A DNA stretch of 64,000 bases from an uncultured Nitrospiraceae bacterium (GTDB lineage: Bacteria; Nitrospirota; Thermodesulfovibrionia; Thermodesulfovibrionales; SM23-35). Positions within the stretch are counted from its first letter, which is position 1; each line of letters opens with the position of its first letter. This document shows, in pieces, positions 33,330-61,951 of the stretch. The position numbers and the translations under genes were made by a program. The notes below the pieces were generated by a model. That model was given only the letters and a program-made list of their open reading frames with translations, made no database searches and was not told where the DNA came from. The stretch spans positions 512,001 through 576,000 of the forward strand of contig CAVSHB010000002.1 of the NCBI GenBank assembly GCA_963727775.1, in the 5' to 3' direction.

Positions 33330-33490
33330 CAGTTATCCCGGATACTCTATATATCAATAAAGAATAGCAATATTATAGAATTTTAAGCCTCCTATCAGTA
33401 TTCAGCTCGTTCTGCGTAAATAAATTATACCCATATTAATACCCATATATTGGTATTGCTATGTTAGCCTATCTATGGTATAGTGGACAT

Positions 33491-33778
33491 ATGAGGAAAG
33501 TCCGTTTTGAATGGGATGAGCAGAAAGATAAGGAAAACCAAGCGAAACACAATATCGCTTTTTCATTAGCTCAACATGCTTTTCTTGATCCCAACCGTGT
33601 GATAGTTGAAGATGTTAATCATAGCACAGAAGAGGAACGATTTTACTGCATTGGCCGCGTAGGTGATGGCATAATGACCGTAAGGTTTTCTTATAGAGGT
33701 AACGTTATCCGCAGCCATGGTGCGGGATATTGGAGAAAAGGGAGGAAAATATATGAAGACCAAAATAAAGTACACTGA
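33491..33778 (+). CDS. BrnT family toxin
   Basis: FEWDEQK-x-x-x-N-x-x-KH, HS-x-x-EER, VIR; start at MRKVRFEWD. Confidence 0.85.
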   Translation: MRKVRFEWDEQKDKENQAKHNIAFSLAQHAFLDPNRVIVEDVNHSTEEERFYCIGRVGDGIMTVRFSYRGNVIRSHGAGYWRKGRKIYEDQNKVH

Positions 33779-33992
33779 AGAACCACTGGGAGAATTGAGG
33801 ATCGTTAAGGATTTTCTTCCTAGACCGGAACAGTTAGCATTGAAGGAAGAAAACGTCAAGATTACAATTTCCCTGAAGAAATCAAGCATTGAATTTTTCA
33901 AAAAAAAGGCTAAAGAGCAGCATACGTCGTATCAGAAAATGATCCGTCGGCTTGTAGATTGGTATACCTCACAACATCAAAAGAACGCATAA
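33753..33992 (+). CDS. BrnA/CopG-like antitoxin
   Basis: DFLP-x-PE-x-L, KITISL, FFK, YQKMIR; overlaps the toxin, GGAGG RBS. Confidence 0.8.
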   Translation: MKTKIKYTEEPLGELRIVKDFLPRPEQLALKEENVKITISLKKSSIEFFKKKAKEQHTSYQKMIRRLVDWYTSQHQKNA

Positions 33993-37172: not shown

Positions 37173-39173
37173 ATGAATATCTTCAAAAAATCGGATGACA
37201 AACAACAGCTTGCCGCCATAGAAGAATTCCGGCAAAAGATCGCCTCGGCAAATATGCCGCCCAATGTCCTGCAGATCGCCGAGAAAGAACTTGATATGCT
37301 GTCGAAGATAAGCCCGGCAACAGCGGAATATACAATAAGTCTCACTTATATTGATTATCTGGTCGGCCTTCCCTGGAACAAAAAGACATCCGACAATCTC
37401 GATCTCGAAAGGGCCGAAAGTATTTTGAATGAAAGGCATTATGGCCTGAGTGAAGTCAAGGAAAGGATCATCGAGCACCTGGCGGTCAAGATACTGGTGA
37501 TGAACAAAAGACCCGTGATCCTGGTGGTTGATGATGAGGAGATTGCGAGGAACAATCTTGAGCATATCCTGGAAAAAGAAGACTATACGGTGGTCGTCGC
37601 AAAAAACGGGATGGAGGCCGTTGAAAAGATAGAGACCTCTGTTTTTGATGTTGTCCTGACCGATCTTAAGATGGAAAAAGTCAACGGGATCGACGTTCTT
37701 GAAAAGACAAAAAGCAAATATCCGGACACACAGGTCATTATGATTACCGCTTATGCAGCGGTTGATACGGCCATAGAGGCCATGAAAAGAGGTGCGTTCC
37801 ATTATATCGCAAAACCGTTCAGGCTTGAAGAGGTAAGATCGACCGTTAAACAGGCGCTTGACAGGAAGCTTTCTTCGGTTTCCGCAAAGGGATCTATCCT
37901 TTGTTTCTCAGGTCCTCCAGGTACCGGCAAGACTTCGCTGGGCAAGTCCGTTGCGGAGGCTTTGGGTAGAAAATTCGCGAGGATTTCGGTTGGAGGTATG
38001 AAAGACGAGGCCGAGATAAGAGGCCATAGGAGGACATACGCCGGCGCGATGCCCGGACGGATCATCGAAGAAATCCGCCGCGCGGAGTTTTCCAACCCCG
38101 TCATCATGCTGGATGAAGCAGACAAAATCGGTCAGGATTTTAAAGGGGATCCCGCTTCTGCATTGCTGGAGGTCCTCGATCCGGAGCAGAACCGGAGTTT
38201 CATCGACCATTACCTGGACGTGCCGTTTGATCTTTCAAATGTCATGTTTATTGTGACGGCCAATATTGCAGACAATATCCAGGAACCCCTCAGGGACCGC
38301 ATGGAAATAATAGATTTCTCCGGTTATACGGAAGATGAAAAAACGAAGATAGCGATGCGCCACCTGGTACCTAAACAGATCCGGGAACAGGGACTGTCGG
38401 ATTATCCGCCTGAATTTGACGTTGAGGCAGTAGTTAAGGTAATCAACGATTATACCAGGGAGGCCGGCACAAGGAACCTTGAAAGGCAGATTTCCACTAT
38501 CTGCCGGAAGATTGCGACGGAGTTTGTACATCACAGAGAAACGAAACGGAGTATTAAGGTGACACCGGAGCTGGTCCAGAGGTTTTTAGGCCCGAGAAGG
38601 TATTACCTTGAGGTCGCGGATGAAAAGAATAAGGTCGGTGTTGTGACGGGTCTCGTATGGACCGAGGCAGGCGGGGATATAATCTTTGTAGAGGCGGCGC
38701 GGATGAAAGGCGGGAGAGACCTCATCCTCACCGGGTCGCTCGGAAACGTTATGCGCGAATCCGCCCAGGCGGCCTTAAGCTATATACGTAGCAACGCCGC
38801 TTTTTTCAATATCCCGGAAGATGTGTTCGAGAATAGCGATATACACATCCACGTCCCTGCCGGAGCCATTCCGAAGGACGGCCCTTCCGCCGGCGTTACA
38901 ATAGCGGCTTCCCTCATCTCGCTTTTAAAGGGAAGTCCCGCAAGACGCGACGTCGCGATTTCAGGCGAGATAACCTTGAGCGGCCGGATACTTCCGGTCG
39001 GAGGGGTCAAAGAAAAATTGCTTGCAGCGCGGCGGGCAGGGGTCAGGGTTGTAATATTGCCTTTCAAAAATAAAGTGGATGTAGAAAATCTCGCCGGGGA
39101 TGTTAAAGCCGGATTGGAAATCTTCCTTGTGGACAAGATAGAAGAGATTGTTGATAGGGTGCTGACAAAGTAA
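37173..39173 (+). CDS. lon: Lon protease variant lacking the N-terminal domain, with an internal receiver (REC) domain
   Basis: [49 protein letters not shown] (VVDDE, LTDLKM, ITAY, AKPF) at about 37510-37870. Confidence 0.93.
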
Positions 39174-39240
39174 CTTCACTCTGAAATCTGTGGCTTTTAC
39201 TCTGCCGGCACCTTACCAACAATCTCTTCTGCGGTCTGTT

Positions 39241-39420
39241 TTATTGCCTTTGTATACCGGGGGCCCTGAGTTCTTTTCTGCTCCTGGCCGCAGGCGATAT
39301 TCGGTCTGTTTTTTGCGGTTGTGCCTGTCCCAGCAATTCTCTGGCGGTGTTGAAATCCCCTTCTTCCGCAAAGGCCGCTGCTGCGAACATTGTTTCTAAC
39401 TTTTTTGCTAATCCTTTCAT
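39241..39420 (-). CDS. Small protein (59 aa) with AAAFAEEG motif
   Basis: MKGLAKKLETMFAAAAFAEEGDFNTARELLGQAQPQKTDRISPAARSRKELRAPGIQRQ*; just under the ORF-track cutoff; fills the gap behind a sigma-54-like promoter. Confidence 0.7.
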   Translation of the reverse strand: MKGLAKKLETMFAAAAFAEEGDFNTARELLGQAQPQKTDRISPAARSRKELRAPGIQRQ

Positions 39421-39450
39421 ATCTATTCTACTTTCTGACCTGTTATATAC

Positions 39451-39466
39451 TCATTTTTCATGCCAG
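39451..39466 (-). promoter_or_regulatory. Sigma-54-like -24/-12 promoter
   Basis: Minus strand CTGGCATGAAAAATGA: GG-N10-GA (GC to GA variant), 30 bp upstream of the small ORF. Confidence 0.5.
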
Positions 39467-39544
39467 CATTTTTATTGTTATGTAACATATTGTTTAATAT
39501 TATTTTATTTGGATTGTGGGACATGCCGGCCTTCAATACAGACT

Positions 39545-39561
39545 TGATGCACAATGCAACA
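39545..39561. promoter_or_regulatory. Candidate enhancer-binding-protein upstream site
   Basis: Near-palindrome TGATGCA-CAA-TGCAACA about 80 bp upstream of the sigma-54-like promoter. Confidence 0.4.
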
Positions 39562-39697
39562 AAACCGCCGGTCACAATTTTCAAGGGGAGCATGGGGAGT
39601 AAAGACCGGTATCCTACTAAGCGGTTTTCGTACTATTACCTACTGTGTTGCAGAAAAAAGGTTAAGCATTGCTTTTTGCAATAGGAGGGTGTAAAAT

Positions 39698-41203
39698 TTG
39701 AATATGTTCAGATATAAGCCTAGCATAAGGAAAAAAATCATATTCGGATATTATGCCGGGATCGCCGTAATCATCTGGCTTTCTCTGTTTACCGTTATAG
39801 AGCTTTGGTATATAGAGAAAAAGGTGCAGTTCGGAGACGTCGTTACTGAATTCTTCGATACTACTCTTGAAATGAGGAGGTTCGAAAAAAATTTCTTTTT
39901 ATACGAAAAAAATGAAGACTATCTGGAAAATATGCAATACGTTGTGAAGGCACAGAACATACTCGACAAAAATATTAAGGGATATAAAGGGCTCGTAATC
40001 GCCCAGCAATTGGACATACTGCATGAGGACCTTAATGAATACGGATCGTTGATGGAGCGGTTCGCCGTGCTTGGCGGGAACAATGTCGACGTTAAGTCAA
40101 ATTTGGAGAAAGCGATACGGGCAAAGGGCAAGGAGATCATAACGATTTCCGAAGAAGTCTCAAAGATCGAGAAAGAAAGGCTCCAGGCATTGTTGAATAA
40201 AACCCGGAAGGTGCTCATCTTCTCGTTTATCTCCCTCTCTCTGTTGGGGATTGCAATAGGTCAGCTTCTGTCGAGGATGGTAGTAAAACCCTTGAAGGCG
40301 CTGGAAGAAAGGATGAAGCTGATATCAGAGGGGAAACTCGAGACCGTGTCGATAAAGTCAAAGGACCAGGAGATCGTGTCACTTACAAACGCCTTCAACA
40401 AAATGCTGAAGGAACTCGAAGTGAGACGGAAACATCTTGTCCAGAGAGAAAAGCTTGCATCGCTCGGGACATTGCTGTCAGGTGTCGCCCATGAGCTAAA
40501 CAACCCGTTGTCAAATATCTCATCCTCGTGCCAGATACTCATCGAAGAATTCGGCGACCCCGATATTGAATATCAGAAGGAGCTTCTCGGGCAGATCGAC
40601 GAACAGACGGACAGGGCAAAAAATATTGTCCGGTCATTGCTGGATTTTTCGAGGGACAAGGACTTCAAGAAGGAATACCTGCCGCTGAAGAAGATTTTTG
40701 AAGAGACAATCCTGTTCATTAGAGGTGAAATCCCGTCGAAGGTGCAAACCGTCCTCGATATCCCGGACGATATTGTTGTTTTTGCCGACAAGCAGAGGCT
40801 CGAACAGGCATTTTTGAACCTGATAAAAAACGCCGTCGATTCCATCCCGGACGAAGGCGGCGTGGTCATTAAGGCGAGAAAGCGGGCTTTCAGACCTGAG
40901 CAAGGAGAGAAAGCAGCGGGGTGTGTTTATGAAAGATACAAGGGGAAGTGCACAGGCACCTGCCCTTCTGAAGAGGACACTGTCGATATCGAGATCAGCG
41001 ACACAGGGGAAGGGATCCCTCCGGAGGTCCTTTCGAGAATATTCGACCCGTTTTTTACCACAAAGGATGTCGGAAAGGGTTCAGGTCTCGGACTTTTTAT
41101 AGTGCAGGAAATAATAGAAGAGCATGACGGCTGTATCGGGGTCGACAGCGAGTTCGGGAAAGGGACTTCTTTTTTAATAATATTACCTGTGAAGGAGCGA
41201 TGA
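39698..41203 (+). CDS. HAMP-domain sensor histidine kinase
   Basis: Two TMs flanking a periplasmic domain (RRFEKNFFLY), HAMP, AHELNNPL, DTGEGI, GSGLGL; start TTG 39698 or ATG 39704. Confidence 0.93.
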   Translation: MNMFRYKPSIRKKIIFGYYAGIAVIIWLSLFTVIELWYIEKKVQFGDVVTEFFDTTLEMRRFEKNFFLYEKNEDYLENMQYVVKAQNILDKNIKGYKGLVIAQQLDILHEDLNEYGSLMERFAVLGGNNVDVKSNLEKAIRAKGKEIITISEEVSKIEKERLQALLNKTRKVLIFSFISLSLLGIAIGQLLSRMVVKPLKALEERMKLISEGKLETVSIKSKDQEIVSLTNAFNKMLKELEVRRKHLVQREKLASLGTLLSGVAHELNNPLSNISSSCQILIEEFGDPDIEYQKELLGQIDEQTDRAKNIVRSLLDFSRDKDFKKEYLPLKKIFEETILFIRGEIPSKVQTVLDIPDDIVVFADKQRLEQAFLNLIKNAVDSIPDEGGVVIKARKRAFRPEQGEKAAGCVYERYKGKCTGTCPSEEDTVDIEISDTGEGIPPEVLSRIFDPFFTTKDVGKGSGLGLFIVQEIIEEHDGCIGVDSEFGKGTSFLIILPVKER

Positions 41204-42567
41204 GCATGCAAGGCGCAATAAAGATATTAATTGTGGATGACGAAAGGGTAGCTCTCAAAAACCTTGAGCATGTTATGAAAAAAGAGGGTTATGACGTGAC
41301 AGGGACTGAAAGCGGGCAGAACGCCCTGAAGCTCCTTGAAGACCGGCAATTTGAAGTTGTGCTTACTGATTTGCGGATGGAAAAGGTCGACGGGATGCAG
41401 ATACTGAAAAAATGCCGTGAGCTTTATCCTGACGCCGAGGTGATAATGATAACCGGTTATGCAACGCTTGAGACCGCAGTCGAAGCCATGAAGAAAGGCG
41501 CTTTCCACTACGTTGCAAAGCCGTTCAAACTGGACGTGGTACGAAACGTCGTCAAGGAAGCCGTTGAGAAAGTGAGACTAAAGATGGAAAACAGGCTACT
41601 CAGGGAGCAGATAGAAACTTATCAGGGAAAGGTAAAGATTATCACACAGGACGGTAATATGCAGAGGCTTCTTGATACTGCAAGGCAGATCGCGCCTACC
41701 GATTGCAATGTCCTCCTCAGCGGCGAAAGCGGCACCGGAAAAGAGTTGTTTGCAAAGTATATCCATTTGAACAGCAGCCGCACGGAAGGGCCTTTTTTTG
41801 CCATAAATTGCGGGGCGTTCACAGAGGAGCTTCTGTCTAATGAACTCTTCGGCCATGAAAAGGGCGCTTTTACCGGAGCGATGAGCATGAAGCGCGGGTT
41901 GGTTGAAATGGCGTCAGGCGGTACATTGTTTCTTGATGAAATAACCGAAATGCCGCCTTCAATGCAGGTAAAACTTCTGAGAGTCATTCAGGAAAAGGAA
42001 GTCCTGAGGGTCGGCGGAACAGAATCCTTAAAGGTAGATGTCAGATTTATTGCGGCAAGCAACAGGGACATTCATGACGCTATAAAGAACGGAAGGTTCC
42101 GGCAGGACCTATATTTCAGACTGAATGTCGTTTCCCTGCATATTCCGCCTTTGTCGGAAAGAAGGGACGATATCCCGCTCTTGAGCTATTATTTCCTGAA
42201 GAAATATGCGGCCGTAATGAAAAAAGATGTTACCGAGATATCCGAGGACGCAATGGGTCTGCTCATGAATTATGATCTGCCCGGCAACGTCAGGGAGCTT
42301 GAAAATATCATTGAAAGAGGAGTTGCCCTTGCCAACGGGAGAACCATAGAGATAGCCCATCTGCCCGAAGACCTGAGAGAACTGAGGATACAGACATTCA
42401 GAAAGAAGGAAGGCAAGATCCCTTCCCTTGAAGACCAGGAGACGGCCTACATAAAATGGGTCTTAAATGAGGTCGGCGGCAATAAAACCATCGCGGCCCA
42501 GATATTGGGAATAGACAGGGTATCACTCTGGAGGAAGCTCAAGAAATACGGACTGGACCCTGAATGA
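41200..42567 (+). CDS. Sigma-54-dependent response regulator (NtrC family)
   Basis: REC, GESGTGKE, GAFTGA, PGNVRELEN, Fis HTH; overlaps the kinase stop. Confidence 0.95.
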   Translation: MSMQGAIKILIVDDERVALKNLEHVMKKEGYDVTGTESGQNALKLLEDRQFEVVLTDLRMEKVDGMQILKKCRELYPDAEVIMITGYATLETAVEAMKKGAFHYVAKPFKLDVVRNVVKEAVEKVRLKMENRLLREQIETYQGKVKIITQDGNMQRLLDTARQIAPTDCNVLLSGESGTGKELFAKYIHLNSSRTEGPFFAINCGAFTEELLSNELFGHEKGAFTGAMSMKRGLVEMASGGTLFLDEITEMPPSMQVKLLRVIQEKEVLRVGGTESLKVDVRFIAASNRDIHDAIKNGRFRQDLYFRLNVVSLHIPPLSERRDDIPLLSYYFLKKYAAVMKKDVTEISEDAMGLLMNYDLPGNVRELENIIERGVALANGRTIEIAHLPEDLRELRIQTFRKKEGKIPSLEDQETAYIKWVLNEVGGNKTIAAQILGIDRVSLWRKLKKYGLDPE

Positions 42568-42590: not shown

Positions 42591-44405
42591 TTACATATCC
42601 ACCCTTGTCATGACCCCGTGGAGTTTATATGGCGGCAGTTTGTAGAATTGAACGAACGCCGGGGTGAGCTTCTTGATAAACGAGAATATTTTCCAGACCG
42701 GATTTTCCGTCACGATGTCCTCAAGCCCGTAAAAAATCGTCTTTTCGTCGATCCCTGATTCCTTCAGGAGATCTTCAATATCAGGCACCTCCATATACCC
42801 CACCTGAATTTCGAATACCCGCAAGCCGTGCCCGGGGTCTTCTTTAAAAAAGCCTGTCAGACCAAAGGGATCATCCCGCTTTATTATGGAAACCATGATA
42901 TTTTCTTCATAAAGGATATTATTTACGAACATGCTTCGTATCATAAAAGGAGGTATCTCATTGGGATCCTTCAGAAAAAAGAGGGAAACCCCTCTTAATT
43001 TAGGCATGGTTTTGTAAGCAAGATTGTATCTTTCAAGAAAGTTATGAAGCGGCACGGGTTTCAATATTTTATAAAGCCTTTTTTGGCCGCTGGTATAAAT
43101 GATAACGGTGATGAAAGGGAAGGCCCCGATGATAATCGACCAGTAACCCCCGTGAGGTATCTTGTAAAAATTCGACACGAGGAACGCAATATCTACGCAC
43201 GTGACGAGAAATGATGCAATGGCCAGTCCGTTTTTCCTCTTCAGGTGAAAAATCCATGTCATCATGATTCCCGTGAGGGTCATTGTTCCGGTGACCGCCA
43301 AACCGTAGGCGGCGGCAAGCCGGCTGGATTCCCTGAATTCAACCATAATAAACAAAACGGATATGAGAAGAAACCAGTTAACAAAACCTATGTAAATCTG
43401 TGACCTCAATTCGGTGGATGTATAGTCGATCTTGAAAAGCGGCATTATATGGGTGGTTATCCCCTGGTAAACAATCGAGAACATCCCGCTGATCATGGCC
43501 TGAGAGGCTATCACAGTCGCAATAATACTGAGGACCAGGAAGGGTATATACAGTGTCCGGGTGGTATGGAATATCATTTCAAAAAGGACATTCTTAGAAG
43601 CAGGGTGCCCGATGAGGAACGCTCCCTGTCCGAGATAATTGATCAAAAGGGCAACAAATACAAGATACCATGCATGGATGATGGGCTTCCGTCCCAAATG
43701 TCCCATATCGGCATATAACGCCTCACCTCCTGTTGCACAGAGTATGACTTCAGAAAGCACAAAAAATCCTGTGAGGCCGTTTTCATAAAGAAATCTTAAG
43801 GCATAGTATGGGTTTATAGCCCGTATCACAACCGGGGAATCAGCGATTGACATTAAGCCGGAGACAGACAAAGATGTAAACCAAACCAGCATCAAAGGTC
43901 CGAACGCCCAGGACACTTTCTCTGTGCCCTTTTTCTGGAAGGAGAACAGCACTATTGCAATTATCCCGGCGGCAAGAATAAGTAATTCCTGTTTTGTGCC
44001 TTCCAGTCCGGGGATTAAGAGTGATCCCTCAACGGCGCTCAGGATACTGATGGCAGGCGTAATTACACCATCGCCGATGAGCAGGGATATGCCGATAAAA
44101 GAAAGAAAAGATACAAATGCCGCCTTCCTGCCTGACTTGAGCAACGGCACAAGTATTTCCTTAAGGACTATGGTGCCACCCTCACCCTTTTTCCCGAGGC
44201 TCATTGCAAGCCATGCGTACTCAACAGTGACGAGTATTACAAGGGTCCATACTATAAGGGAAAGGACCCCCATTACATGGGCTTCAGTAGGCTTTGTGAG
44301 GAGAAAGATAACCGTCAGTGTATAGATCGGGCTGGTTCCGATATCACCGAAGACAAGGCCAAGGGATTTTATTATTCCTCTGAAAGAAGGCTCTTTGCTG
44401 ATCAT
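42591..44405 (-). CDS. kup: KUP/HAK/KT potassium transporter
   Basis: GDIGTSPIY, GEGG, GDGVITPAIS, EALYADMGHLG, AAAYGLAVTG. Confidence 0.95.
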   Translation of the reverse strand: MISKEPSFRGIIKSLGLVFGDIGTSPIYTLTVIFLLTKPTEAHVMGVLSLIVWTLVILVTVEYAWLAMSLGKKGEGGTIVLKEILVPLLKSGRKAAFVSFLSFIGISLLIGDGVITPAISILSAVEGSLLIPGLEGTKQELLILAAGIIAIVLFSFQKKGTEKVSWAFGPLMLVWFTSLSVSGLMSIADSPVVIRAINPYYALRFLYENGLTGFFVLSEVILCATGGEALYADMGHLGRKPIIHAWYLVFVALLINYLGQGAFLIGHPASKNVLFEMIFHTTRTLYIPFLVLSIIATVIASQAMISGMFSIVYQGITTHIMPLFKIDYTSTELRSQIYIGFVNWFLLISVLFIMVEFRESSRLAAAYGLAVTGTMTLTGIMMTWIFHLKRKNGLAIASFLVTCVDIAFLVSNFYKIPHGGYWSIIIGAFPFITVIIYTSGQKRLYKILKPVPLHNFLERYNLAYKTMPKLRGVSLFFLKDPNEIPPFMIRSMFVNNILYEENIMVSIIKRDDPFGLTGFFKEDPGHGLRVFEIQVGYMEVPDIEDLLKESGIDEKTIFYGLEDIVTENPVWKIFSFIKKLTPAFVQFYKLPPYKLHGVMTRVDM

Positions 44406-47565: not shown

Positions 47566-50268
47566 CTACAGATCAAGGACTACTTTTACAGCATCTTCAT
47601 CTGAAGATTCTTTCTTAAATCCCATTTTCTCAGCACTATGCAACATTCTCGCGTTGATCTGCAGGATTTCCATGTACATCTTCTTTATCCCTAATTCTTT
47701 GGCTATTTTCAGACAGTGCAAGCAAAGCGCTTTGCCGATACCCTGTCCCTGCCACTGGTCTCCGACTACAACGGCCATTTCAGCGCTCTCGAGATCGGGG
47801 AGCCTGCTCATCCTTACCTCGCCTATCATTCGTTCACGTCCGCCGTTTCTCATGATTGCCACGAAAGAAAGCTCCCTGTCGTAATCTACATGACAAAATC
47901 TCGTCAACTGTTCATGCGACATTTCAGATATCTTGCGGAAGAACCTCATCATAAGGGTTTGTTCAGAGGAGGTCTTTAATAACTCTTCCATGAGGGGTTC
48001 GTCCTCAGGACGGATAGGCCTTATGACTGCCGCGGGTCCTTCTCTTAATTTGAAGATATCGATATATTGGTCCGGATAGGGGCATATGGAAAGATGAGGG
48101 GGACAGAAAGCTCCTCTCACAGGCACGAAACCTTCAAGGACATCCGCCTCAAGTATGATATTGGCGTCCAGCACAAACCCGTCCTCACTCGAAATAAAGA
48201 AAGGATTTATATCTATTTCCTTGATGTGCGGGAAATGGATAATCAGGTGCGAAAACCGCACGAGGATTTCTTCCAGATATCTCAAATTACTCTCGAAGTC
48301 CTTCTGTTTCATAAGGTGCTTGTAGATTTTTGTCTTGTTCATCATACGCCTTGCCAATATCTGGTTCAACGGCGGGAGTCCTATCGAATAATCCTCTACC
48401 GCCTCAAGGAGCACCCCGCCGGTCCCGAACACTATTACCGAACCGAAAGTAGGGTCCTTTTTAGCGCCGATTACAATTTCATATCCGCGTTTTATAACCA
48501 TCGGCTGAATGATCACCTGTGCCTTCGGATCATCTAATGAGGAGGCCAGTTCTTTCAACTGCCGGAACGCGTCCTTTACCGAATCCCGGTCTCTCAGGTT
48601 TAACGCGACTCCACCCGATTCAGTCTTATGCAGGATTTTCTGTGAGTCTATCTTCAAAACAACGGGATACCCTATAAAATCTGCGATCTCAATCGCTTCT
48701 TCATGGCTTTGGACGACCTTCGTGGGGATTACCGGTATGCCGTATGACAAGAGTATGTCTTTGACCTCGTTTAAATTCAGGAGGAGCCTTTGCTCTTCCG
48801 ATGCCTTTTTTATGATCTCCTCAGCCCTGTCCTCATCCGGCTCGAAGTCTTTGAGGATGACCTCGGGGGTCTCGAGGAGGAGCCGCAAGTTGTAGTCATA
48901 CCGGTACATGTATATGAAGCTCTTCACCGCCTGCTCGGTCGATACGGAAGTCGGTATGCCCTGATCGCTGAGGAATTCTCTCGAAGGGATCACCCGTTCT
49001 CCACCCATCCATGTAGTAAATATCGGTTTGTAGGGGTATTCCCTGGCTGCAGAGGCCACCGCTTCCGCAATCTCTTTTGAATTAGACAGATAAGAGGGTG
49101 TATGGATAACAAGAACACTGTCCACCTGTTTGTCTTTTAAACAGCTTTTTACTGCTATTTCATAATCCTGGGGAGACGCCTCGATAAGGAGGTCAACAGG
49201 ATTCCGGGCCTGCTTTAAGTATTTAAAGTAAGACTGTAGAATATTAACTGTTTCCGGGCTTAAGGTTGCAAGCTCTCCGTCCAGCTGCAGGAGTGTGTCT
49301 ACGGCGATTATCGCGGGACCGCCTGAATTTGTAATAAGCGCGAGACGGTTCCCTTTGGGACGGCGCTGTTTGGATAAAGATTCGGCCAAATAAAACAGGT
49401 CAAGGGTTTCGTGAACTCTGATGGCGCCGGCCCTTTCGAAAGCCGCATCATAAACCTTATCTTCACCGGCCATATAGCCTGAGTGTGTTAGCGCTACATG
49501 GGCGGAGACATCGAATTTTCCGGACTTGATCACCATGATGGGTTTACTGGAAGCGAAACTTCTTACAGCGGTCATGAATCTGCGGCCGTTCTTTATGGAT
49601 TCGATATAGAGGATAATGGCCCTTGTTTCAGGATCAACACCCAAGAAATCGATGAGATCGGCGAGCTTAATGTCGATTTTGGCGCCTATGGAGATGAAAT
49701 GACTAAACCCGATGTTCTTGCTGACAGCCCAGTCCAGCAAAGCTGTTGAGAGTGTTGCGCTCTGTGCAATAAGCGCTATGTTGCCCTTCGGCGGAAGTTG
49801 CGGGAAAAGGCTGGCGTTCAGATTCAGGCTCGGCTTTATGAATCCCATGGAATCAGGTCCTAAAACCCTGAACCCGTACTTCCGGGATATCTGACTTATT
49901 GTTGTTATGAGCAGTTCTGAATTTTCGACCCTGTTCTTCAAATCAAAACAGAGTATGGACACGCCTTTCACGCCTTTGAGTCCGCAGTCTTCAAGCGCTT
50001 CGGGTATCTCCGGACAGGGCACCGCCAATATGGCCAAATCTATTTCACGCTGGATATCTGTAATCTTAGGATAAGCTTCAACCCCCTGTACGGCTTCCAT
50101 CCGGGGATTAACGGGATATACCGATCCTTTGAAGCCTTTCCCTAAAAGATTCTTAAATATGTAATAACCGATAGACGCCTTATCTTCATTTGCGCCTATA
50201 ACTGCAATTCTTCGGGGATTAAAGAAATATTCAAGGTTTTTTACCGACACAGTAAATCTCCTTATCAA
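47566..50268 (-). CDS. Acetate-CoA ligase-like / GNAT fusion (Pat/PatZ-type protein lysine acetyltransferase)
   Basis: CoA-binding N-terminus, ATP-grasp-like region (HK-x-x-x-GGV, DINP), C-terminal GNAT (IRPIRPED, DYDRE, WQGQGIG). Confidence 0.9.
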   Translation of the reverse strand: MIRRFTVSVKNLEYFFNPRRIAVIGANEDKASIGYYIFKNLLGKGFKGSVYPVNPRMEAVQGVEAYPKITDIQREIDLAILAVPCPEIPEALEDCGLKGVKGVSILCFDLKNRVENSELLITTISQISRKYGFRVLGPDSMGFIKPSLNLNASLFPQLPPKGNIALIAQSATLSTALLDWAVSKNIGFSHFISIGAKIDIKLADLIDFLGVDPETRAIILYIESIKNGRRFMTAVRSFASSKPIMVIKSGKFDVSAHVALTHSGYMAGEDKVYDAAFERAGAIRVHETLDLFYLAESLSKQRRPKGNRLALITNSGGPAIIAVDTLLQLDGELATLSPETVNILQSYFKYLKQARNPVDLLIEASPQDYEIAVKSCLKDKQVDSVLVIHTPSYLSNSKEIAEAVASAAREYPYKPIFTTWMGGERVIPSREFLSDQGIPTSVSTEQAVKSFIYMYRYDYNLRLLLETPEVILKDFEPDEDRAEEIIKKASEEQRLLLNLNEVKDILLSYGIPVIPTKVVQSHEEAIEIADFIGYPVVLKIDSQKILHKTESGGVALNLRDRDSVKDAFRQLKELASSLDDPKAQVIIQPMVIKRGYEIVIGAKKDPTFGSVIVFGTGGVLLEAVEDYSIGLPPLNQILARRMMNKTKIYKHLMKQKDFESNLRYLEEILVRFSHLIIHFPHIKEIDINPFFISSEDGFVLDANIILEADVLEGFVPVRGAFCPPHLSICPYPDQYIDIFKLREGPAAVIRPIRPEDEPLMEELLKTSSEQTLMMRFFRKISEMSHEQLTRFCHVDYDRELSFVAIMRNGGRERMIGEVRMSRLPDLESAEMAVVVGDQWQGQGIGKALCLHCLKIAKELGIKKMYMEILQINARMLHSAEKMGFKKESSDEDAVKVVLDL

Positions 50269-50330
50269 CGAACTTATATATTGTAACTTTAACGAAGCAA
50301 AAAATGCAGGTCAAAGAGGATAAGAAAAAT

Positions 50331-50358
50331 AGCAGGGGCCTATGTTTGGACCCCTGCT
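50331..50358 (-). terminator. Intrinsic terminator after acs
   Basis: agcagggg/cccctgct stem followed on the minus strand by ATTTTTCTT. Confidence 0.6.
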
Positions 50359-50366
50359 TAATTTGT

Positions 50367-52337
50367 TTATTGTTTTCCCTTCAGAATTTCATTTACAACA
50401 GAAGGGTCTGCGAGGGTTGAGGTATCTCCGAGATCCTCGGTATCGCCCCTCGCAATCTTTCTGAGAATTCGCCGCATGATCTTTCCGCTTCTGGTCTTGG
50501 GAAGGCCGGGAGCGAACTGGATTTTATCAGGGCTCGCTATCGGACCGATTACATGTCTGACGTGCCCTACAAGTATCTTTTTAAGTTCAGGTGTCGGATC
50601 GTAACCTTCTTTAAGGGTCACATACACATAGATGCCTTCACCTTTAATGTCATGGGGATACCCGACTGTTGCAGCCTCTGCAACTGCTTCATGGCTGACC
50701 AAGGCGGATTCGATCTCCGCGGTACCGATCCTGTGCCCGGAGACATTAATGACATCGTCGATCCTTCCCATGAGCCAGTAATCTCCGTCCTCGTCCAACC
50801 GTGCGCCGTCGCCGGTGAAGTATTTCCCGGGGAAGCGGGAGAAATACACTTCCTTGATTCTCTTGTTTTCCGGATCTCCGTAAGTTCCGCGCAATATTCC
50901 GGGCCACGGTCTGTCAATACAGAGGTAACCGCCTTCGTTGATTCCTGCCGGTGATCCATCCTCCTTTAAAATTATTGGGACAAGGCCAGGAAATGGTTTG
51001 CTTGCGGACCCCGGTTTTGTAGTCATCGCACCCGGCAAAGGTGTTATGAGTATTCCGCCTGTTTCAGTCTGCCACCAGGTGTCGACAATGGGCAGCTTGC
51101 CTTTCCCCACATTGTTGTGGTACCACATCCACGCTTCGGGATTTATCGGTTCTCCCACAGTACCGAGCAATCTTAATGAGGAGAGGTCGTGTTTTTGGAC
51201 CCAACTCTCACCTTCCCTCATGAGGGCCCTGATTGCAGTGGGAGCTGTATAAAAGATACTTATCTTATGCTTTTCAACGATCTTCCAGAACCTGCCGGGA
51301 TCAGGATAGGTTGGAATACCTTCAAACATGAAGCTGGTGGCTCCATTGCTTAGAGGTCCGTAAACGATATAACTGTGGCCTGTTACCCAGCCGATGTCGG
51401 CAGTGCAGAAATGGATATCTTCAGGGCGGTAATCAAAAATCCATTTGAAGGTGAGGTTTGTGAAGAGCATATAACCGCCTATCGTATGAAGGACTCCCTT
51501 TGGCTTTCCTGTAGAACCGGAAGTGTAGAGGATAAACAGCGGGTCTTCAGCGTCCATCTGTTCAGGTTCACAGTAGTCTTTAATCTCCGGGTCATTCATC
51601 TCATCGTGCCACCAGAAATCTCTCTCCGGCTCCATATCAACACTGCCGACCCTCTTGACCACGATCATTCTGTCTACTGTCGGGCATTCCTGGACTGCTT
51701 CATCGGCATTTGACTTAAGGGGAACATATCTGCTGCCCCTGACGCCTTTGTCCGCAGTAATCACGAGCTTTGACTTGCAGTCCTGAATCCTGTCCTTTAA
51801 GGCCTGTGCGCTGAAACCGCCGAAAACAATGCTGTGAATCGCGCCGATACGTGCGCAGGCAAGCATCGATATAACAAGTTCGGGTATCATCGGCAGATAG
51901 ATTGTTACCCTGTCACCTTTTGTGACGCCATACTTTTTAAGGACATTCGCAAATCTGTTTACTTCATAGAAAAGCTGCTGGTAGGTGTACGTTTTGTAGG
52001 TACCGTCGTCAGCTTCCCATATGATGGCTGCCTTGTTCCTTGTGGCAGTGTTCATAAACCTGTCCAGGCAGTTATAGGAAGCATTCAGTTTTCCTCCAAC
52101 AAACCATTTGATATACGGTTTATTAAAATCCCAATCAGATACCTTGTCCCATTTCTTATACCAGATCAGTTGTGTTTCTGCCATTTCCGCCCAAAAACCC
52201 TCAGGGTCTTCGACTGATCTTCTATAAAGCTTTTCGTAAGCTTCTATGTTTTTGATATGAGCTTTTTCGCTGAATTCTTTTGACGGCGGGAATGTCCTTT
52301 TTTCCGTCGACAATACATCAATACTTTCTTTCGACAT
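50367..52337 (-). CDS. acs: Acetyl-CoA synthetase (AMP-forming)
   Basis: [31 protein letters not shown] with the acetylatable Lys. Confidence 0.97.
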
Positions 52338-52387
52338 CCTTTATACTCCCTCCTTTACGAAATTGGAATATTGAGTTTTATTATGTT

Positions 52388-54271
52388 CTATTCTGCTCCG
52401 ATTCCTACATAACTCCTGACCTTCTCATCTTCGAATTTTATATCAGCCCCTTTCTCGGGCGCCAGAAGCGACACAAGAATGCCGATCAGGAAAGCGAGCC
52501 CCATGGATATGACTGCAGGGTTCTTCATCGGGAATATGGCCTTTGGTTTCGGTGATACCAGGGTAACAGCTTCGATTTTGTCTTTGTATACACTCGGGGC
52601 CACGGTCGTGAGGATTTGGTCTATCTGACCATTAATCTGTTTGTTGCTGTCTACGTCAGCAGATGAGAGGACAGTGCCTTCGGCTGCAGTCTTGATGCCC
52701 TTTTGGAGTGTGCCGATTTTGCTCTTTGCATCTTTGTCCGCTGCTATTATCTCAAGTGCAGCGGCTTTCTCGATTTTCTTGTTTGCAGCCTCATCTTCAG
52801 AACTCAATGTCTGTCCGGGCGCAGCTATTTTAATATCCTTCTTGATCTTGTCGACTTTTTCCTTTATATCCCAGGCTGTCTTCTCCTTCAGGTGAACAAT
52901 ATCAACCCAGACCGTAGGGCTCAAAATAATAAGCCCGGCAGCGAGGATGAGGCCAGTATAGATGCTCGCTACAGCGCCTTTTGTCGTGAATTTCTTCCAT
53001 GTGATCGATAAGAGAAGGGCTGGGAAATTGGCGCTGCACGCGACAGCAAAAGCCAGTCCGACCATGAAAGCGACATTCTGCCCTTTAAACAGGATGCCGA
53101 GCAGGATAGCCGAGACCCCGAGAATGATCGTAGCAATTTTTGCGACTTTGACCTCTTCTTTTTCTGCAGCCTGCCCGCGTCTTATAACACCGACATAAAG
53201 GTCATGTGAAAGGGCCGATGCCCCGGCAAGAGTCAGACCGGAAACAACCGCGAGGATTGTTGCGAAGGCTACAGCAGCGAGAAATCCAAGAAAGAAAGTC
53301 CCACCCAATGCTTCTGCGAGCAGCGGAGCAGCCATGTTGCCGCCTGCATCGATACCGGTAATAATCTTCTTCCCGACGAGGATAGCGGCGCCAAATCCTA
53401 TCGTAACGGTAAGTATATAAAAATAACCGATAAAACCTGTTGCATAAAATACCGACTTTCTGGCTGTTTTTGCATCAGGCACCGTATAGAACCTCATCAA
53501 TATGTGAGGGAGTCCAGCAGTTCCGAACATAAGAGCAAGTCCGAGAGAGAATGCCTCGAGAGGGCTGGTGATGAGGCCGCCGGGCTGGAGGAACGTGTCG
53601 CCATATTTAGTTGCCGCCTGGTGAAAAAGGTCTCCATAACTGAAGCCGAACGTCAAGAGCGTAAGAAAAACGAGAACCGTAGCGCCGCCGAGGAGGAGCG
53701 CCGCTTTGATGATCTGAACCCATGTGGTTGCGATCATCCCGCCGAAAAGCACGTAGGATATCATAAGGGCTCCCACCGCTATGACCGCGACCTCAAACGG
53801 CAACCCGAACATCAGTTTCACCAATGTCCCTGCGCCGACCATCTGTGCTATCAGATAAAATAGGACCGTAACGAGAGAGCCTGCTGCTGCCGCTCCTCTT
53901 ATCGGCCTCTGATTTAACCTGTATGCTACGACATCGGCAAACGTATATTTGCCGAGATTCCTCAGGGGTTCCGCGATGAGGAACATGATAATAGGCCATC
54001 CCACAAGCCAGCCGACGGAATAGATAAGCCCGTCATAGCCCTTTGTCGAGACCAGCCCGGCTATTCCCAGAAAGGAAGCCGCACTCATATAGTCACCTGC
54101 GAGCGCGAGGCCGTTCTGCAGTCCCGTTACGCTCCTGCCTGCCGCATAAAAATCTTTTGTCGTCCTTGTCCTCTTTGCCGCCCAGTACGTTATTGCGAGT
54201 GTGGTCATAACAAATACAAAAAAGAAAATAATCGATGTAATATGCACCTGTCCTATAGTAGTCTGTTGCAT
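52388..54271 (-). CDS. actP: Cation/acetate symporter ActP with a hydrophilic insertion
   Basis: [38 protein letters not shown]. Confidence 0.92.
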
Positions 54272-54273
54272 TT

Positions 54274-54591
54274 CTACCCTCCTATCTTGTCTCTCAGGTT
54301 TTTAACCATGCCGTCATATTTAGTATTGGCCCATCGGATATAGATTCCGGTAAATATCCATGAAAGCACAATAGTGCCGACTGCTATAGGAATCCCGACC
54401 GTGATTGCCCCGTAAATTTTCTGGGAAAGGAAGTCCTTGTTAAAGGCGATAAGGGCTATAAACCCGAAATAGAGAACCAGTTCCAGCACGGTGAGGATTA
54501 TTGATATGGAATTCTTCTGACTGCGCAATGCTTTGAAATCATCGTCGTTGAGGATATCTTCAGTGGTTATTTTGCCGCTTTTAGTGCTCAT
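54274..54591 (-). CDS. DUF485 membrane protein (YjcH-like)
   Basis: Two TMs, [13 protein letters not shown], directly upstream of actP. Confidence 0.88.
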
Positions 54592-54627
54592 TCTTAACCC
54601 CCCTCATTTGCTTAAATTTTTTTAAGA

Positions 54628-55332
54628 CTAAAAATTGCTTATTTCACTTGATCCCTTGTGTTTATCACCTCCTTCGAAAGGATGCCCTATTTCCAATAGG
54701 TCTCCTATATGATTTACTCCGATATCAATGAGAACCTGCATAAAACGTTGTAAGAGTTGCGCTGTGATGAATGCATCAACAAGCGCATTGTGCGCACCGC
54801 GAACGGCGATGCTGAAACATTGCGCAATTTCGTAAAGTGATGAATCTTTTGGTGATGACGAGAAACAGGTTCGGGTCGGAACTTTATTCCTCAACCAGTC
54901 ATAGACGTTATAGGTATCTATTACGGGATTTTGCACCGTATTTCCCGAAATCCGCTTCGTCTCCCGGTTAATAAAACTCAGGTCTATCGAAACGCAGTGC
55001 CCTACAATGACATCATCATCACAGAAGCGGAGAAACTCTGAGAGAACTGCATCGATATTCGGCTTTTCTAAAACATCCGATGGTGTGATTTCGTGCACTA
55101 CTACACTTTTAGGCTGAAATTTACTCTCCGGTCTTACCAGTTGATGGAAGCTGTCGGCAAGTTCAATCCTTGTCCCGTTCATACGAACAGCCCCCATGGA
55201 GATTATGGAATCTTTTTTCTCATTCAGCCCCGTAAGCTCTGTATCTATGACCGTGTATTGGACATCCATAATGGATTTGTTTTTGTCGATATTAAGCGGA
55301 GCCTGTTTCCTGAGTTTAAAAAAATCAATCAT
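54628..55332 (-). CDS. DEDDh 3'-5' exonuclease (DnaQ-like)
   Basis: VIDTELTG, GH-x-x-x-ID, HNALVDA. Confidence 0.88.
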   Translation of the reverse strand: MIDFFKLRKQAPLNIDKNKSIMDVQYTVIDTELTGLNEKKDSIISMGAVRMNGTRIELADSFHQLVRPESKFQPKSVVVHEITPSDVLEKPNIDAVLSEFLRFCDDDVIVGHCVSIDLSFINRETKRISGNTVQNPVIDTYNVYDWLRNKVPTRTCFSSSPKDSSLYEIAQCFSIAVRGAHNALVDAFITAQLLQRFMQVLIDIGVNHIGDLLEIGHPFEGGDKHKGSSEISNF

Positions 55333-55337
55333 TTCCT

Positions 55338-57236
55338 TTACCAGATCATCGCTTTATAGCGTTCAATAATCAGGTCCTGAATCTTCGATACGAGCTGAAA
55401 CGTCTCCTTCGCGATACGCTTCTCGAGGTTGCTCAGGTTATTGGGATTAATGAAATTATCAATATCTTTTCCGTCTTTCAACTGCTCCAACTGGTGTTGA
55501 ATTCTGAGGAGCATAATAAATTCAAAGGCGTGAATAAGCTCGTCCGCGTATTCTTTTACAATCGTGTGTTTGTCTCTCAGGATATTGATCCTTTCGATAG
55601 TGGAGGTTTCTCTAAGGCCTTTTTCCAGGGCAAAAAGTCTTACTATGTCCACCAGTGGAGCAAGACCCTTAATCTTCATATTCAATTTGTCTTTGTGTTC
55701 TCCGCTCTTTTCGACCACAAAGGTCTTCAGGAAACCTATGGGCGGCATGTTCTTTATCGCCAGGTTTGCTATATAACCGAGGAAAATTTTTGAGTCTTTT
55801 GCCATCGACAGTGTGAAATCCTTCAGCCAATCCAGGAGCCTTGTCTCACCATAAACGGCCCTGACGTCGAAAAATGTGACGGAATTTAATACTGCATCCG
55901 AGGTCGGCGTGGATATCCAGTTTGTAAAATATTTTCTCCAGACATGCAGAGGCTGCCGCCACATCGGGTTTGTGGCCATAAAATCGGCGGGGCATAACGG
56001 GAACCCGCACTTGAGCAAGCCATCCCGGACAAATGACGTGAAAATCCTGAAATATTCCTGTGCGGCCGCTTCCATTTCAGCGTCAGCCGGATCATGATAG
56101 ATGAGCGCGTTGTCCTGGTCGGTTTTAAAGGTCTGCTCCTTCCGTCCCTCGCTCCCGAATGAGACCCAGCAGTAAGGGACAGGAGGTTCACCAAAACGCT
56201 CTTCGGCGATCTCGAGTATTTTCTTTACCAGCCTATCGTTGATCTCGGTAATGATCCTCGTAATGCTGCTTGCCTTCGCACCCTCATTCAGCAATAAGCC
56301 AACGATATTGTTAATTTTTTTTGAGACAGGGATGAGGGCATCGACGGTACTCTGGCTTTCGATATCTTTAACGACCGAAAGCGGAGAGGTCCCCTGTATA
56401 AGCATAAGGTCGTGGTTGGTCAAAATTCCCGTGAGTTTATTGTCTTTCATAACCAGCAGATGGTGGACATTATGTTTAACCATTTTCAGGATTGCTTCAA
56501 AACAATATTCCTTCACATCGGCCTGCACGTGGGGAACGCTCATGATATCCGTGACAGGGTCCCGGCAGTCCTTTCCTTTCGAGACCACCTTGTCTCTGAG
56601 GTCCCTGTCGGTGATTATCCCCGTCGCAAGTCCTTTTGCATCGATCAGGATCAATGAACTGATCCTGTAATTAGACATTATCTCTGCCGCCTCTTGAATG
56701 GACAGGTTCTCGGAAGCCTTTATGATGTTCCTGGACGCAAGCTCCCCTACGGGCATGGTGAAAAGGATCTTGTCCCCTCCCGCATAAACCAAATTTTTGT
56801 TCTGAATCTCCTTAAACGTCTTGTCCAGATATTTGCTCAGGAAGGATTTATTGAAGAATTCTCTGATGACGGGATTTGAATACATAAGATTCTGTATCGT
56901 TTCCCGGTTTATCAGGTAACAGATCGTATCATCGAGCGCAACAACATTTGCCCTTGCTTCGGCGCCGCCGAAAATAAGGAGATAGCCTATTAAATCACCT
57001 TCGCCCCTGTAATCAACGAATACCTCTTCATTCTCGTTCGTGATAAAGACTTTTACTTCGCCCTTTTTGATGACGTAAAGATATCCGGGCGCAGGACCCC
57101 CCTGAGATTGAATTAACGTCCCTTTCGGGTAAAATTCCATCGAGACGCCGCCGGTTATATTTTTTAAAGTAGTATCATCAAGAAACTGGAAAGGAGGTAT
57201 TTTTTTGAGGAATTCTATGACATCTTCGATAAGCAT
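55338..57236 (-). CDS. cNMP-binding / CBS / DUF294 nucleotidyltransferase protein
   Basis: N-terminal cNMP-binding domain, two CBS (GIITDRDLR), GSEGRKEQ-x-x-x-TDQDNAL. Confidence 0.92.
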   Translation of the reverse strand: MLIEDVIEFLKKIPPFQFLDDTTLKNITGGVSMEFYPKGTLIQSQGGPAPGYLYVIKKGEVKVFITNENEEVFVDYRGEGDLIGYLLIFGGAEARANVVALDDTICYLINRETIQNLMYSNPVIREFFNKSFLSKYLDKTFKEIQNKNLVYAGGDKILFTMPVGELASRNIIKASENLSIQEAAEIMSNYRISSLILIDAKGLATGIITDRDLRDKVVSKGKDCRDPVTDIMSVPHVQADVKEYCFEAILKMVKHNVHHLLVMKDNKLTGILTNHDLMLIQGTSPLSVVKDIESQSTVDALIPVSKKINNIVGLLLNEGAKASSITRIITEINDRLVKKILEIAEERFGEPPVPYCWVSFGSEGRKEQTFKTDQDNALIYHDPADAEMEAAAQEYFRIFTSFVRDGLLKCGFPLCPADFMATNPMWRQPLHVWRKYFTNWISTPTSDAVLNSVTFFDVRAVYGETRLLDWLKDFTLSMAKDSKIFLGYIANLAIKNMPPIGFLKTFVVEKSGEHKDKLNMKIKGLAPLVDIVRLFALEKGLRETSTIERINILRDKHTIVKEYADELIHAFEFIMLLRIQHQLEQLKDGKDIDNFINPNNLSNLEKRIAKETFQLVSKIQDLIIERYKAMIW

Positions 57237-59623: not shown

Positions 59624-60853
59624 TCATGACGAGTCCTTGTGCCCGCTATGGGAATAACTATATGCCCTTCTTGAAGGATATGGCATTTCCATCACGGTGA
59701 TCATGGTGCCTTCCCTGCAGCAGGGGCATCTGGTAATATCTATGCCTGTAAGCTCGATCATCAGTTCAGTTGCGGTCTTCTTTTCTCGCTCGGGATGTTC
59801 AGTGTTGTCGTCCATAAGTTCTCTGCAGAGCTGTATAGTTTCTTTCTTTTGCTTGTTGGCCAGGAAACCGAAATGCCGTATCTTCATGAAACCAGGAGGA
59901 AGCACGTGAAGAAGAAACCGTCTGATGAATTCTCCTGAATCCACCGTCGTCAATTTAAGGGTATTGTTATCTTTTCTGTCTCTGTAGGTAAAGGTGACCA
60001 TACCGTTCTGAACATCCACTATGCGGTTATTCGATATGGCCACCCTGTGTGTATATCTGCCAATATACTCGAGAACCTGTTGAGGCCCTGCAAAGGGCTT
60101 TTTGGAAAATACCACCCAGTTCTTTGCCCCGAGGTCTTTTATCAACCCCGAAAATCCATCAGGAGTTGCATACTTTGCAATGGTTCCGGGGAAATCCAGT
60201 TCACCCTTTGCATGAGCCTTCTGCAGGTGTTCAATGAACTTTCCCCTGAATACCATAGAGAGAGCCTCTACATTGAAGAGATAGTTCTCTGCCGAGGAGA
60301 TCCACCTTGTTTTGTCTGGGGACACAGCGCCTCCTGCTATTACACAATGCAGGTGAATATGGTCCAGAAGTCTCTGGTCCCATGTGTGCAGTATGGCTGT
60401 AAAGCCAAGCGTGCCACCAAGATTATTGATGCCGAATTGAAGAAGGGTTTCGGAGACTGCCTTGAACAGGATAGAGAAGATCGCTTTCCTGTTACTGAGG
60501 GCAATAGGATTCAATTCATGTGGCAGGGTAAAGACATTGTGGAAGTACGGCACCGGCAGAAGCTCAGCCTTGCGGTCTTCAAGCCATCTTGCTTTTGTCA
60601 GACACTGACACTTTGGGCAATGACGGTTGCGGCAGGAGTTGTATGCGTGTTGCTCGAATCCGCATTTGTTGCACTTCTCCACATGACCACCGAGATATGA
60701 GGTCCGGCATACGGCAATTGCCCGCATAACTTTACGCTGAGCATAAGGCACTGAGTTCTCACGCCTATAGACCTTTCCGAATTCCCGGAAGATATCGGCC
60801 ACTTCCCACTTCTTTACTACCTCCGACGGCAGGGCTTCCGTGGACGACGACAT
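59624..60853 (-). CDS. IS91-family (HUH/Y2) transposase with zinc-binding domain
   Basis: CRT-x-x-LGG...C-x-x-C...NSCRNRHCPKC, HIHLH (HUH), YIGRY (Y2), RHFGFLAN. Confidence 0.93.
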   Translation of the reverse strand: MSSSTEALPSEVVKKWEVADIFREFGKVYRRENSVPYAQRKVMRAIAVCRTSYLGGHVEKCNKCGFEQHAYNSCRNRHCPKCQCLTKARWLEDRKAELLPVPYFHNVFTLPHELNPIALSNRKAIFSILFKAVSETLLQFGINNLGGTLGFTAILHTWDQRLLDHIHLHCVIAGGAVSPDKTRWISSAENYLFNVEALSMVFRGKFIEHLQKAHAKGELDFPGTIAKYATPDGFSGLIKDLGAKNWVVFSKKPFAGPQQVLEYIGRYTHRVAISNNRIVDVQNGMVTFTYRDRKDNNTLKLTTVDSGEFIRRFLLHVLPPGFMKIRHFGFLANKQKKETIQLCRELMDDNTEHPEREKKTATELMIELTGIDITRCPCCREGTMITVMEMPYPSRRAYSYSHSGHKDSS

Positions 60854-60858
60854 CGAGA

Positions 60859-61722: not shown

Positions 61723-61951
61723 ACAATACCTCCTTGGTTTGGGTTATAGGGATATTGTATGAATATCTGCCGGAGGAATAAATTGTGAGATTACTTCTGG
61801 CGGAGGGCCTTATAGCTTTGACTGTTCATCCTGCCGCGTCAGCGGCTTAGTTCAATGGCTGTTATGTGGAGCTACACATAACAGCCACAAGTCTTTTTTT
61901 TTCACATCGGCCGATGAGTCACGATTACGGAATGAAGAACGCTTATTCGAA

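Follow-up and report, generated by a model that had tools for sequence, protein, structure and literature searches.

An Arg-rich C-terminal tail statistically tied to a receiver-bearing Lon protease in a DVU3303-3305-type signalling module of the Nitrospirota

The closest described relative of the system considered here is found in Desulfovibrio vulgaris Hildenborough, where a Lon protease bearing a receiver domain (DVU3303) forms a three-component system with DVU3304 and DVU3305 (PMC3333781; statements on this and the other cited papers refer to the accessible parts of each). In that 2011 report phosphorylation-dependent activation of the protease was proposed, the target operon DVU3302-3298 was mapped, and orthologues with conserved sites were listed for Thermodesulfovibrio, Thioalkalivibrio and Dechloromonas. 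The DVU3305 site and the functions of its target genes are given in PMC4641369, and DVU3302 appears as a gene of 180 nucleotides (nt) divergent from DVU3303 in supplementary table 5 of PMC10102598. In our study, a locus of this kind was analysed in a stretch of 64,000 nt from an uncultured Nitrospiraceae bacterium (the window, meaning the whole of this stretch). All four open reading frames (ORFs) expected there, encoding a Lon protease with an inserted receiver (Lon-REC), a protein of 59 amino acids (aa), a kinase and a sigma-54 regulator, were confirmed in place (Table 1), and the four genes are real and conserved. The original prediction had presented them as a candidate for an undescribed system; this part has to be withdrawn, as the kinase, the sigma-54 regulator and the Lon-receiver protein are already described together in PMC3333781, and the locus is a signalling module of the DVU3303-3305 type. 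What is new here is the statistical tie between an Arg-rich C-terminal tail and Lon-REC, which holds for two unrelated proteins and in two phyla. No substrate or tag is named in the accessible parts of PMC3333781, PMC4641369 and PMC10102598, and a literature search reaching few subscription journals found no biochemical study or named substrate of the system.

The likeness to the D. vulgaris system extends to gene sizes (2109, 1479 and 1356 nt for DVU3303-3305 against 2001, 1506 and 1368 nt here), to the binding-site motif, to a first target gene of 180 nt and to targets that include a TSUP/TauE transporter and a Usp protein. On the other hand, the target operon of three hypothetical genes, TSUP transporter and Usp is placed here in trans, outside the window, with TauE/Usp operons at C2:672-675 kilobases (kb) and C1:331-338 kb; binding of the regulator upstream of lon, a trait of D. 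vulgaris, is unmatched, a weak site preceding the kinase gene instead; and the AAA+ motif reads GAFTGA in the window regulator whereas it is GAFSGA in DVU3305. The nearest named relatives of Lon-REC belong to Thermodesulfovibrionales/Nitrospirota. The neighbourhood co-occurrence on which the original prediction leaned was indeed observed, the regulator being present in 32, the kinase in 28 and the small gene in 38 of 44 Lon-REC loci with sufficient flank.

Table 1. Features of the Lon-REC locus, in window positions
Feature	Position	Strand	Basis or remark
Lon-REC, 666 aa	37173..39173	+	TIGR00763, Pfam, homologue alignment, model
Receiver of Lon-REC, residues 116-225, phospho-acceptor D164	37518..37847	+	PF00072, E 5e-30
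Gene of the 59-aa protein	39241..39420	-	likely DVU3302 counterpart
Arg-rich tail at the C-terminus, ending R-x-x-L-R-x; candidate tag for recognition by Lon-REC	39244..39324	-	comparative tail pattern
Module of ~32 residues, core AxFAExGExxxAR, predicted helical hairpin	39325..39420	-	161 matches in 80 loci and the own genome
Weak sigma-54 -24/-12 site, 45 base pairs (bp) upstream of the small gene	39450..39465	-	
DVU3305-type activator site, TGTTGC-N5-GCAACA with 1 mismatch, 141 bp before the small gene	39545..39561	.	motif from PMC4641369, PMC3333781
Second, weaker activator site, 3 mismatches	39667..39683	.	overlaps ribosome-binding region of the kinase gene
Membrane sensor kinase, HAMP + HisKA + HATPase_c	39698..41203	+	Pfam; DVU3304 counterpart
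Sigma-54 activator: receiver, AAA+ with GAFTGA, Fis-type helix-turn-helix	41200..42567	+	DVU3305 counterpart

The small protein is built of two parts, a conserved helical hairpin and, behind it, the Arg-rich tail. Among 301 genomes surveyed in the phylum, an intact Lon-REC junction was found in 49 and a broken one in two more; G197, discarded as a Lon-less exception because its frameshifted Lon-REC adjoins the small gene, and G179, with internal stops, were scored as Lon-REC-positive. Of the other 50 Lon-REC genomes, 40 contributed regions to the comparison, together with 39 Lon-less genomes, some of the latter chosen for long hits, a choice which favours exceptions. Many genomes of this phylum carry the same kinase/regulator module without Lon-REC. 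The regions compared contained the small gene in 38 of 40 Lon-REC and 23 of 39 Lon-less genomes, and a tail with at least five Arg residues was present in 37 of the 38 as compared to 2 of the 23. From a second phylum (251 genomes), regions of 24 Lon-REC and 16 Lon-less genomes were taken; a small gene with a basic tail was found in 17 of the 24, and the Lon-less set contained no matching terminal motif. In Lon-REC systems devoid of the small gene the same tail is found on an unrelated membrane protein of ~100 aa from the operon, which occurs alone or fused behind a Usp-like domain. Over all loci, 25 of the 61 membrane-protein sequences from Lon-REC systems carried this extension, as against none of the 31 from Lon-less ones, and it was there in all seven Lon-REC genomes of the genome sample in which the membrane protein was observed in the absence of the small gene.

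Counted by genome, with a tag defined as four or more Arg among the 22 C-terminal residues of either the small or the membrane protein, a tagged product was found in 39/41 Lon-REC against 3/30 Lon-less genomes of the Nitrospirota sample and in 22/22 against 0/7 of the second phylum; taken together, 61 of 63 genomes with Lon-REC had such a product, against 3 of 37 with the look-alike regulator module only. Genomes with neither protein were left out (nine Lon-less in the first set; two Lon-REC and nine Lon-less in the second), and this Arg threshold is also reached by ~5-6% of ordinary ORFs. A contrast in the length of profile matches was kept out of the counts, as that profile derived from neighbours of Lon-REC. 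When a tail profile was trained without this genome, its four tail-bearing regulon products ranked 1, 2, 4 and 5 of 4187 C-termini. As the tail occurs almost only alongside Lon-REC, it likely marks the targets of the protease, and recognition of the tail by Lon-REC is what we consider quite probable from these sequence comparisons.

The correlation could also be an artefact of linkage or shared ancestry of a cassette of lon and small gene, or the tail could be a mere basic anchor to membrane or nucleic acid. The small gene does usually adjoin lon, and some Lon-less tails form a related set of their own. Several points weigh against recognition by the protease in the same manner. Only four well-supported independent contrasts for the small-gene tail were available, all in the same direction (p=0.125), and a separate count gave two; G205, 100% complete and with only a canonical Lon, keeps the tail as a clean exception, the incomplete G152 keeps it without Lon-REC, and G293 and G175 retain partial tails, while in G491 and G380 no neighbour of Lon-REC was found to carry a tag. 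The tag thresholds were set after inspection of the data on a genome sample partly drawn from hits, and relatives of this genome in the training set inflate the profile ranks. Against an artefact stands the presence of the tail on two unrelated proteins and in two phyla, also when unlinked from lon: it persists where the small gene is distant from Lon-REC (G193, G263, G285 and the second locus of this genome). Moreover, pairs of genomes from one genus whose regulators are nearly identical differ in both tail and Lon-REC, and in a regulator-plus-kinase tree of 45 rows both traits change eight times. A short Lys-rich tail already ends the Lon-less membrane proteins and would serve topology. Hence an artefact or a mere anchor appears quite improbable to us.

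The protein which would recognise this tail is a LonA-type protease (742 bits against TIGR00763, cutoff 608) composed of a three-helix bundle, an AAA+ module interrupted by the receiver, and a protease domain. Pairwise alignment with the canonical Lon of 807 aa, which this genome keeps separately, has shown that Lon-REC lacks the globular N-domain and retains little of the long helix, and the Pfam scan of Lon-REC gave no match to an N-domain family. In this alignment the receiver of ~120 residues follows the first AAA+ helix and precedes the strand that leads into Walker A. The LonA hallmarks (Walker A/B, sensor-1, arginine finger, pore-loop Tyr and Ser-Lys dyad) are kept, with K253, D314/E315, Y289, N364, R376, S572 and K615 invariant in 50 of 50 Lon-RECs, and D121, D164, T/S192, K214 and P215 were each found in 79 of 79 Lon-REC receivers. 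A single-sequence model reached a predicted local distance difference test score (pLDDT) of only 37, so the model based on an alignment of 50 homologues was used (pLDDT 84.6); its top fold matches are LonA structures, namely those of E. coli, Yersinia, Meiothermus and human Lon, which share the three-helix bundle, AAA+ module and Ser-Lys dyad; Lon-REC differs from LonA in the missing N-domain and the inserted receiver. In Caulobacter CpdR/ClpXP, too, regulated proteolysis is linked to a kinase through a receiver domain; CpdR, however, serves ClpXP as a stand-alone adaptor, whereas here the receiver is built into Lon. The shortened N-terminus of Lon-REC (window 37173-37190) carries an F-K/R-K motif (F4 in 49/50, K6 in 47/50) absent from the canonical Lon, and two Lon-REC copies per genome were also seen (L058 / G302, G356).

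Small proteins read by Lon through a C-terminal degron are known. The Lon regulators LarA, HspQ and SmiA act in this way, and LarA and HspQ are each both substrate and activator, LarA engaging a groove of the N-domain via its terminal aromatic residue (PMC11882793). These stress-linked proteins are comparable to the present one only in the way they work: the LarA degron binds the N-domain which Lon-REC lacks, the tail here is basic, and no family match emerged. By this analogy the tail's binding site is without precedent, the known degron-bearing regulators binding the Lon N-domain, and this counts against recognition; a site for the tail on Lon-REC would be new. Prediction of a complex of Lon(1-480) with the small protein gave a score of 0.00 and was counted neither for nor against.

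The original prediction had proposed the small protein as a substrate or as an adaptor replacing the N-domain. The tail pattern lends comparative support to the general idea, but since some Lon-REC systems do without the small gene, its product is unlikely to stand in for the N-domain as an adaptor that the protease requires. As an adaptor or activator, the protein would dock its tail on Lon-REC and deliver hairpin-bearing proteins, or the kinase or regulator, through the hairpin. Its two-part anatomy fits this role, as does the double function of LarA and HspQ (PMC11882793). The hairpin module recurs in Usp-like proteins (an assignment resting on a weak match to Usp) and terminates some single receivers; tandem double hairpins precede the tail in small proteins of L016 (6383-6667), L020 (2192-2464) and L021 (2764-3033); and where the small gene was lost, the Usp-like neighbour retains only a decayed hairpin (L005, L117). 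However, Lon-REC genomes without a hairpin match exist (G249, G269; 5/5 tested), the tag is also found on the membrane protein, and the hairpin is retained with or without Lon-REC. The adaptor role is therefore judged unlikely, and it seems reasonably likely that the tagged proteins are degraded by Lon-REC and do not act purely as adaptors.

The small-gene family comprises 2254 relatives of 29-111 aa. None of 47 members scored above any curated Pfam or NCBIfam cutoff, those of LarA/HspQ/SmiA-type families included, and an atlas look-up with a homologue gave clusters of hypothetical proteins only. TPR_4 (12/47), FimV and PTS-IIA were rejected as identities, their weak matches lying under the cutoffs.

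Substrate recognition would be of regulatory value if the protease answers to the same kinase as the activator. The peptide pairs quoted in the original prediction are present in the receivers of Lon and of the neighbouring regulator, which both retain the phospho-Asp and share a helix-1 signature. The statement that the Lon receiver resembles that of its neighbour more than that of the regulator at 13660 holds (54% identity compared to 40%), but a receiver-kinase fusion (C2:670218-671411) is equally close, being 56% identical to the Lon receiver and 78% to that of the neighbouring regulator. At helix-1 and beta5-alpha5 specificity positions, the receivers of neighbour and fusion share 55% with the Lon receiver, while no other well-aligned receiver of the genome exceeds 36%, barring one poor partial match. 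Telling against specific pairing, cognate receivers were barely more similar than non-cognate ones (0.56 vs 0.53), which indicates no co-evolution beyond relatedness. On these residues, one kinase serving both receivers is plausible, and phosphotransfer from the kinase to both is quite probable. The ATP-binding domain of the kinase (window 40900-40990) also contains an insertion with three cysteines, C-x8-C-x-G-x-C-P, possibly a metal or redox site; at least three Cys were found in 12 of the 128 homologues parsed and a one-Cys version in many, with many rows failing the pattern parsing.

The close relation of the two receivers would also suit a Lon-REC that acts as a phosphate sink or as a negative-feedback protease for the kinase or activator, the tagged proteins being incidental or inhibitors of the protease. 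Lon-REC is indeed accessory, since many genomes run the kinase/regulator module without it. But such a role leaves the tag pattern unexplained, and mutants lacking DVU3303 deviate in the same direction as those lacking kinase and regulator, unless the effect is polar. A sink or feedback protease is thus regarded as quite improbable.

As to the regulator, its induction of the small gene, foreseen in the original prediction, is well supported as a prediction by the DVU3305-type site upstream. At one mismatch, this is one of eight such sites in the 3.43-megabase genome, and sites of this type precede 47 of 64 small-gene homologues (0.7% in shuffles). The claimed sigma-54-like promoter lies in the right place, and 55 of the 64 homologues have such a site (shuffles 0.2%), but it is weak here, whereas the sites of homologues are strong: it scores under all 55 homologous training sites, 98 sites in the genome score equally well, and a strict pattern search missed it. 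It has been taken as real because the homologues carry such sites and because of the activator site at 39545-39561. The second activator site has an offset of ~-260, the same in close relatives. The lon gene starts 22 bp after pyruvate kinase, and upstream of its start (37173) no activator site was found at up to two mismatches; lon is therefore probably made without induction and controlled mainly through phosphorylation.

In the window the small gene is alone, monocistronic and convergent with lon. It is a stand-alone gene in 60/80 Lon-REC loci and 38/44 well-flanked ones, usually heading a divergent operon, and in relatives it is the first gene of the regulator's target operon. A paralogue, 61% identical and owning the best-scoring sigma-54 site of the genome, heads a five-gene operon (C2:675441-672273) at a second locus (L201, C2:668628-675441), which encodes proteins of 59, 159 and 102 aa, TauE (361) and Usp (285), in the order small-gene paralogue, Usp-like, membrane protein, TauE and Usp, and which matches DVU3302, 3301, 3300, 3299 and 3298 in order and size. 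A third locus (L202, C1:328263-337706) has a kinase/sigma-54 regulator of its own, two genes for TauE and several for Usp, a hairpin/Usp-like gene that is split, a tagged membrane protein and DVU3305-type sites upstream. The second locus then holds paralogous kinase fragments, the receiver-kinase fusion and a single receiver ending in the hairpin motif, and integrase-like ORFs (C2:675903-680524) split the region between two TauE/Usp operons.

With a genome-best promoter on the paralogue and a weak one on a monocistronic window gene, the latter might be a decaying duplicate, the working target being the paralogous operon. Nevertheless, its ORF is full-length, its tail is intact (rank 2 of 4187), its activator site is good, and the same placement downstream of lon is seen in L003, L004 and L006, so that decay is considered very improbable.

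The explanation favoured here, of targeted degradation, joins these elements. The kinase would phosphorylate both look-alike receivers; the sigma-54 activator would induce the 59-aa protein and the transporter/Usp operon; and phosphorylated Lon-REC, lacking the N-domain, would degrade those operon products which bear the Arg-rich tag. The small protein and the ~100-aa membrane protein may restrain the circuit, and their removal by phosphorylated Lon-REC would sustain the response. The whole chain of dual phosphorylation, operon induction and degradation of tagged products is given an even chance by us.

The tagged proteins are cast as brakes and Lon-REC as their release because the signs of the D. 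vulgaris insertion data are opposed. In the two libraries of PMC10102598, normalised insertion reads for DVU3303/3304/3305 were 3.16, 3.58, 2.97 and 1.53, 1.54, 1.45, as against 0.67, 0.35, 0.58 and 0.43, 0.13, 0.19 for DVU3302/3300/3299; cofitness among DVU3303-3305 exceeded 0.9, and their chlorate phenotype was opposite in sign to that of the transporter DVU3299 (PMC10102598). Insertions in DVU3301 were over-represented though the gene lies between under-represented ones (PMC10102598), so simple polarity within the target operon is disfavoured. Other considerations tell against reading brakes from these data. The cofitness may stem from polarity, as DVU3303 heads an overlapping operon, and the word 'polar' is absent from the main text of PMC10102598 in its accessible part; read depth per gene is a crude proxy for fitness; and the 59-aa gene is matched to its likely counterpart DVU3302 by size, position and promoter, not by sequence. 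A self-induced brake with phosphorylation-gated release through Lon-REC is accordingly held to be neither more nor less probable than its contrary.

Elsewhere in the window, the kup potassium transporter gene (42591-44405) is convergent with the regulator gene. It was considered as a circuit target, as DVU3305 also targets kdp in D. vulgaris (PMC3333781); no activator site was found before it, and the adjacency was left as chance. The window also contains an acetate-uptake-like cluster (47566-57236: acetyl-CoA synthetase, solute symporter, CBS/DUF294 protein, exonuclease and GNAT/CoA-ligase-fold protein) and an IS91-type transposase with an integrase-like partner plus an IS110 transposase (59624-63798). 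Two small overlapping ORFs at 33461-33992 presumably resemble a toxin-antitoxin pair of the BrnT/BrnA type.

This study has highlighted a pattern which can direct further work on a module in print since 2011, as the tail makes the guess of protease activation testable in a genetically tractable organism. The tail pattern yields candidate substrates, the DVU3302-like and DVU3300-like proteins, together with a candidate degron. If the proposed explanation is right, a kinase would directly control an AAA+ protease via an inserted receiver, and a Lon without the N-domain would recognise substrates. In its fullest form, which we put forward tentatively and hold at somewhat below an even chance, Lon-REC would be a protease switched by phosphorylation that has given up the N-domain, a general binding site for substrates, in exchange for an Arg-rich degron of its own. 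In evolution this degron would have shifted between two carriers, one a soluble protein with the hairpin, the other a small membrane protein, and each would inhibit the very kinase circuit by which it is induced. If true, this would be an orthogonal, signal-gated pair of degron and protease, and a two-component system whose second output is the targeted destruction of its own brakes.

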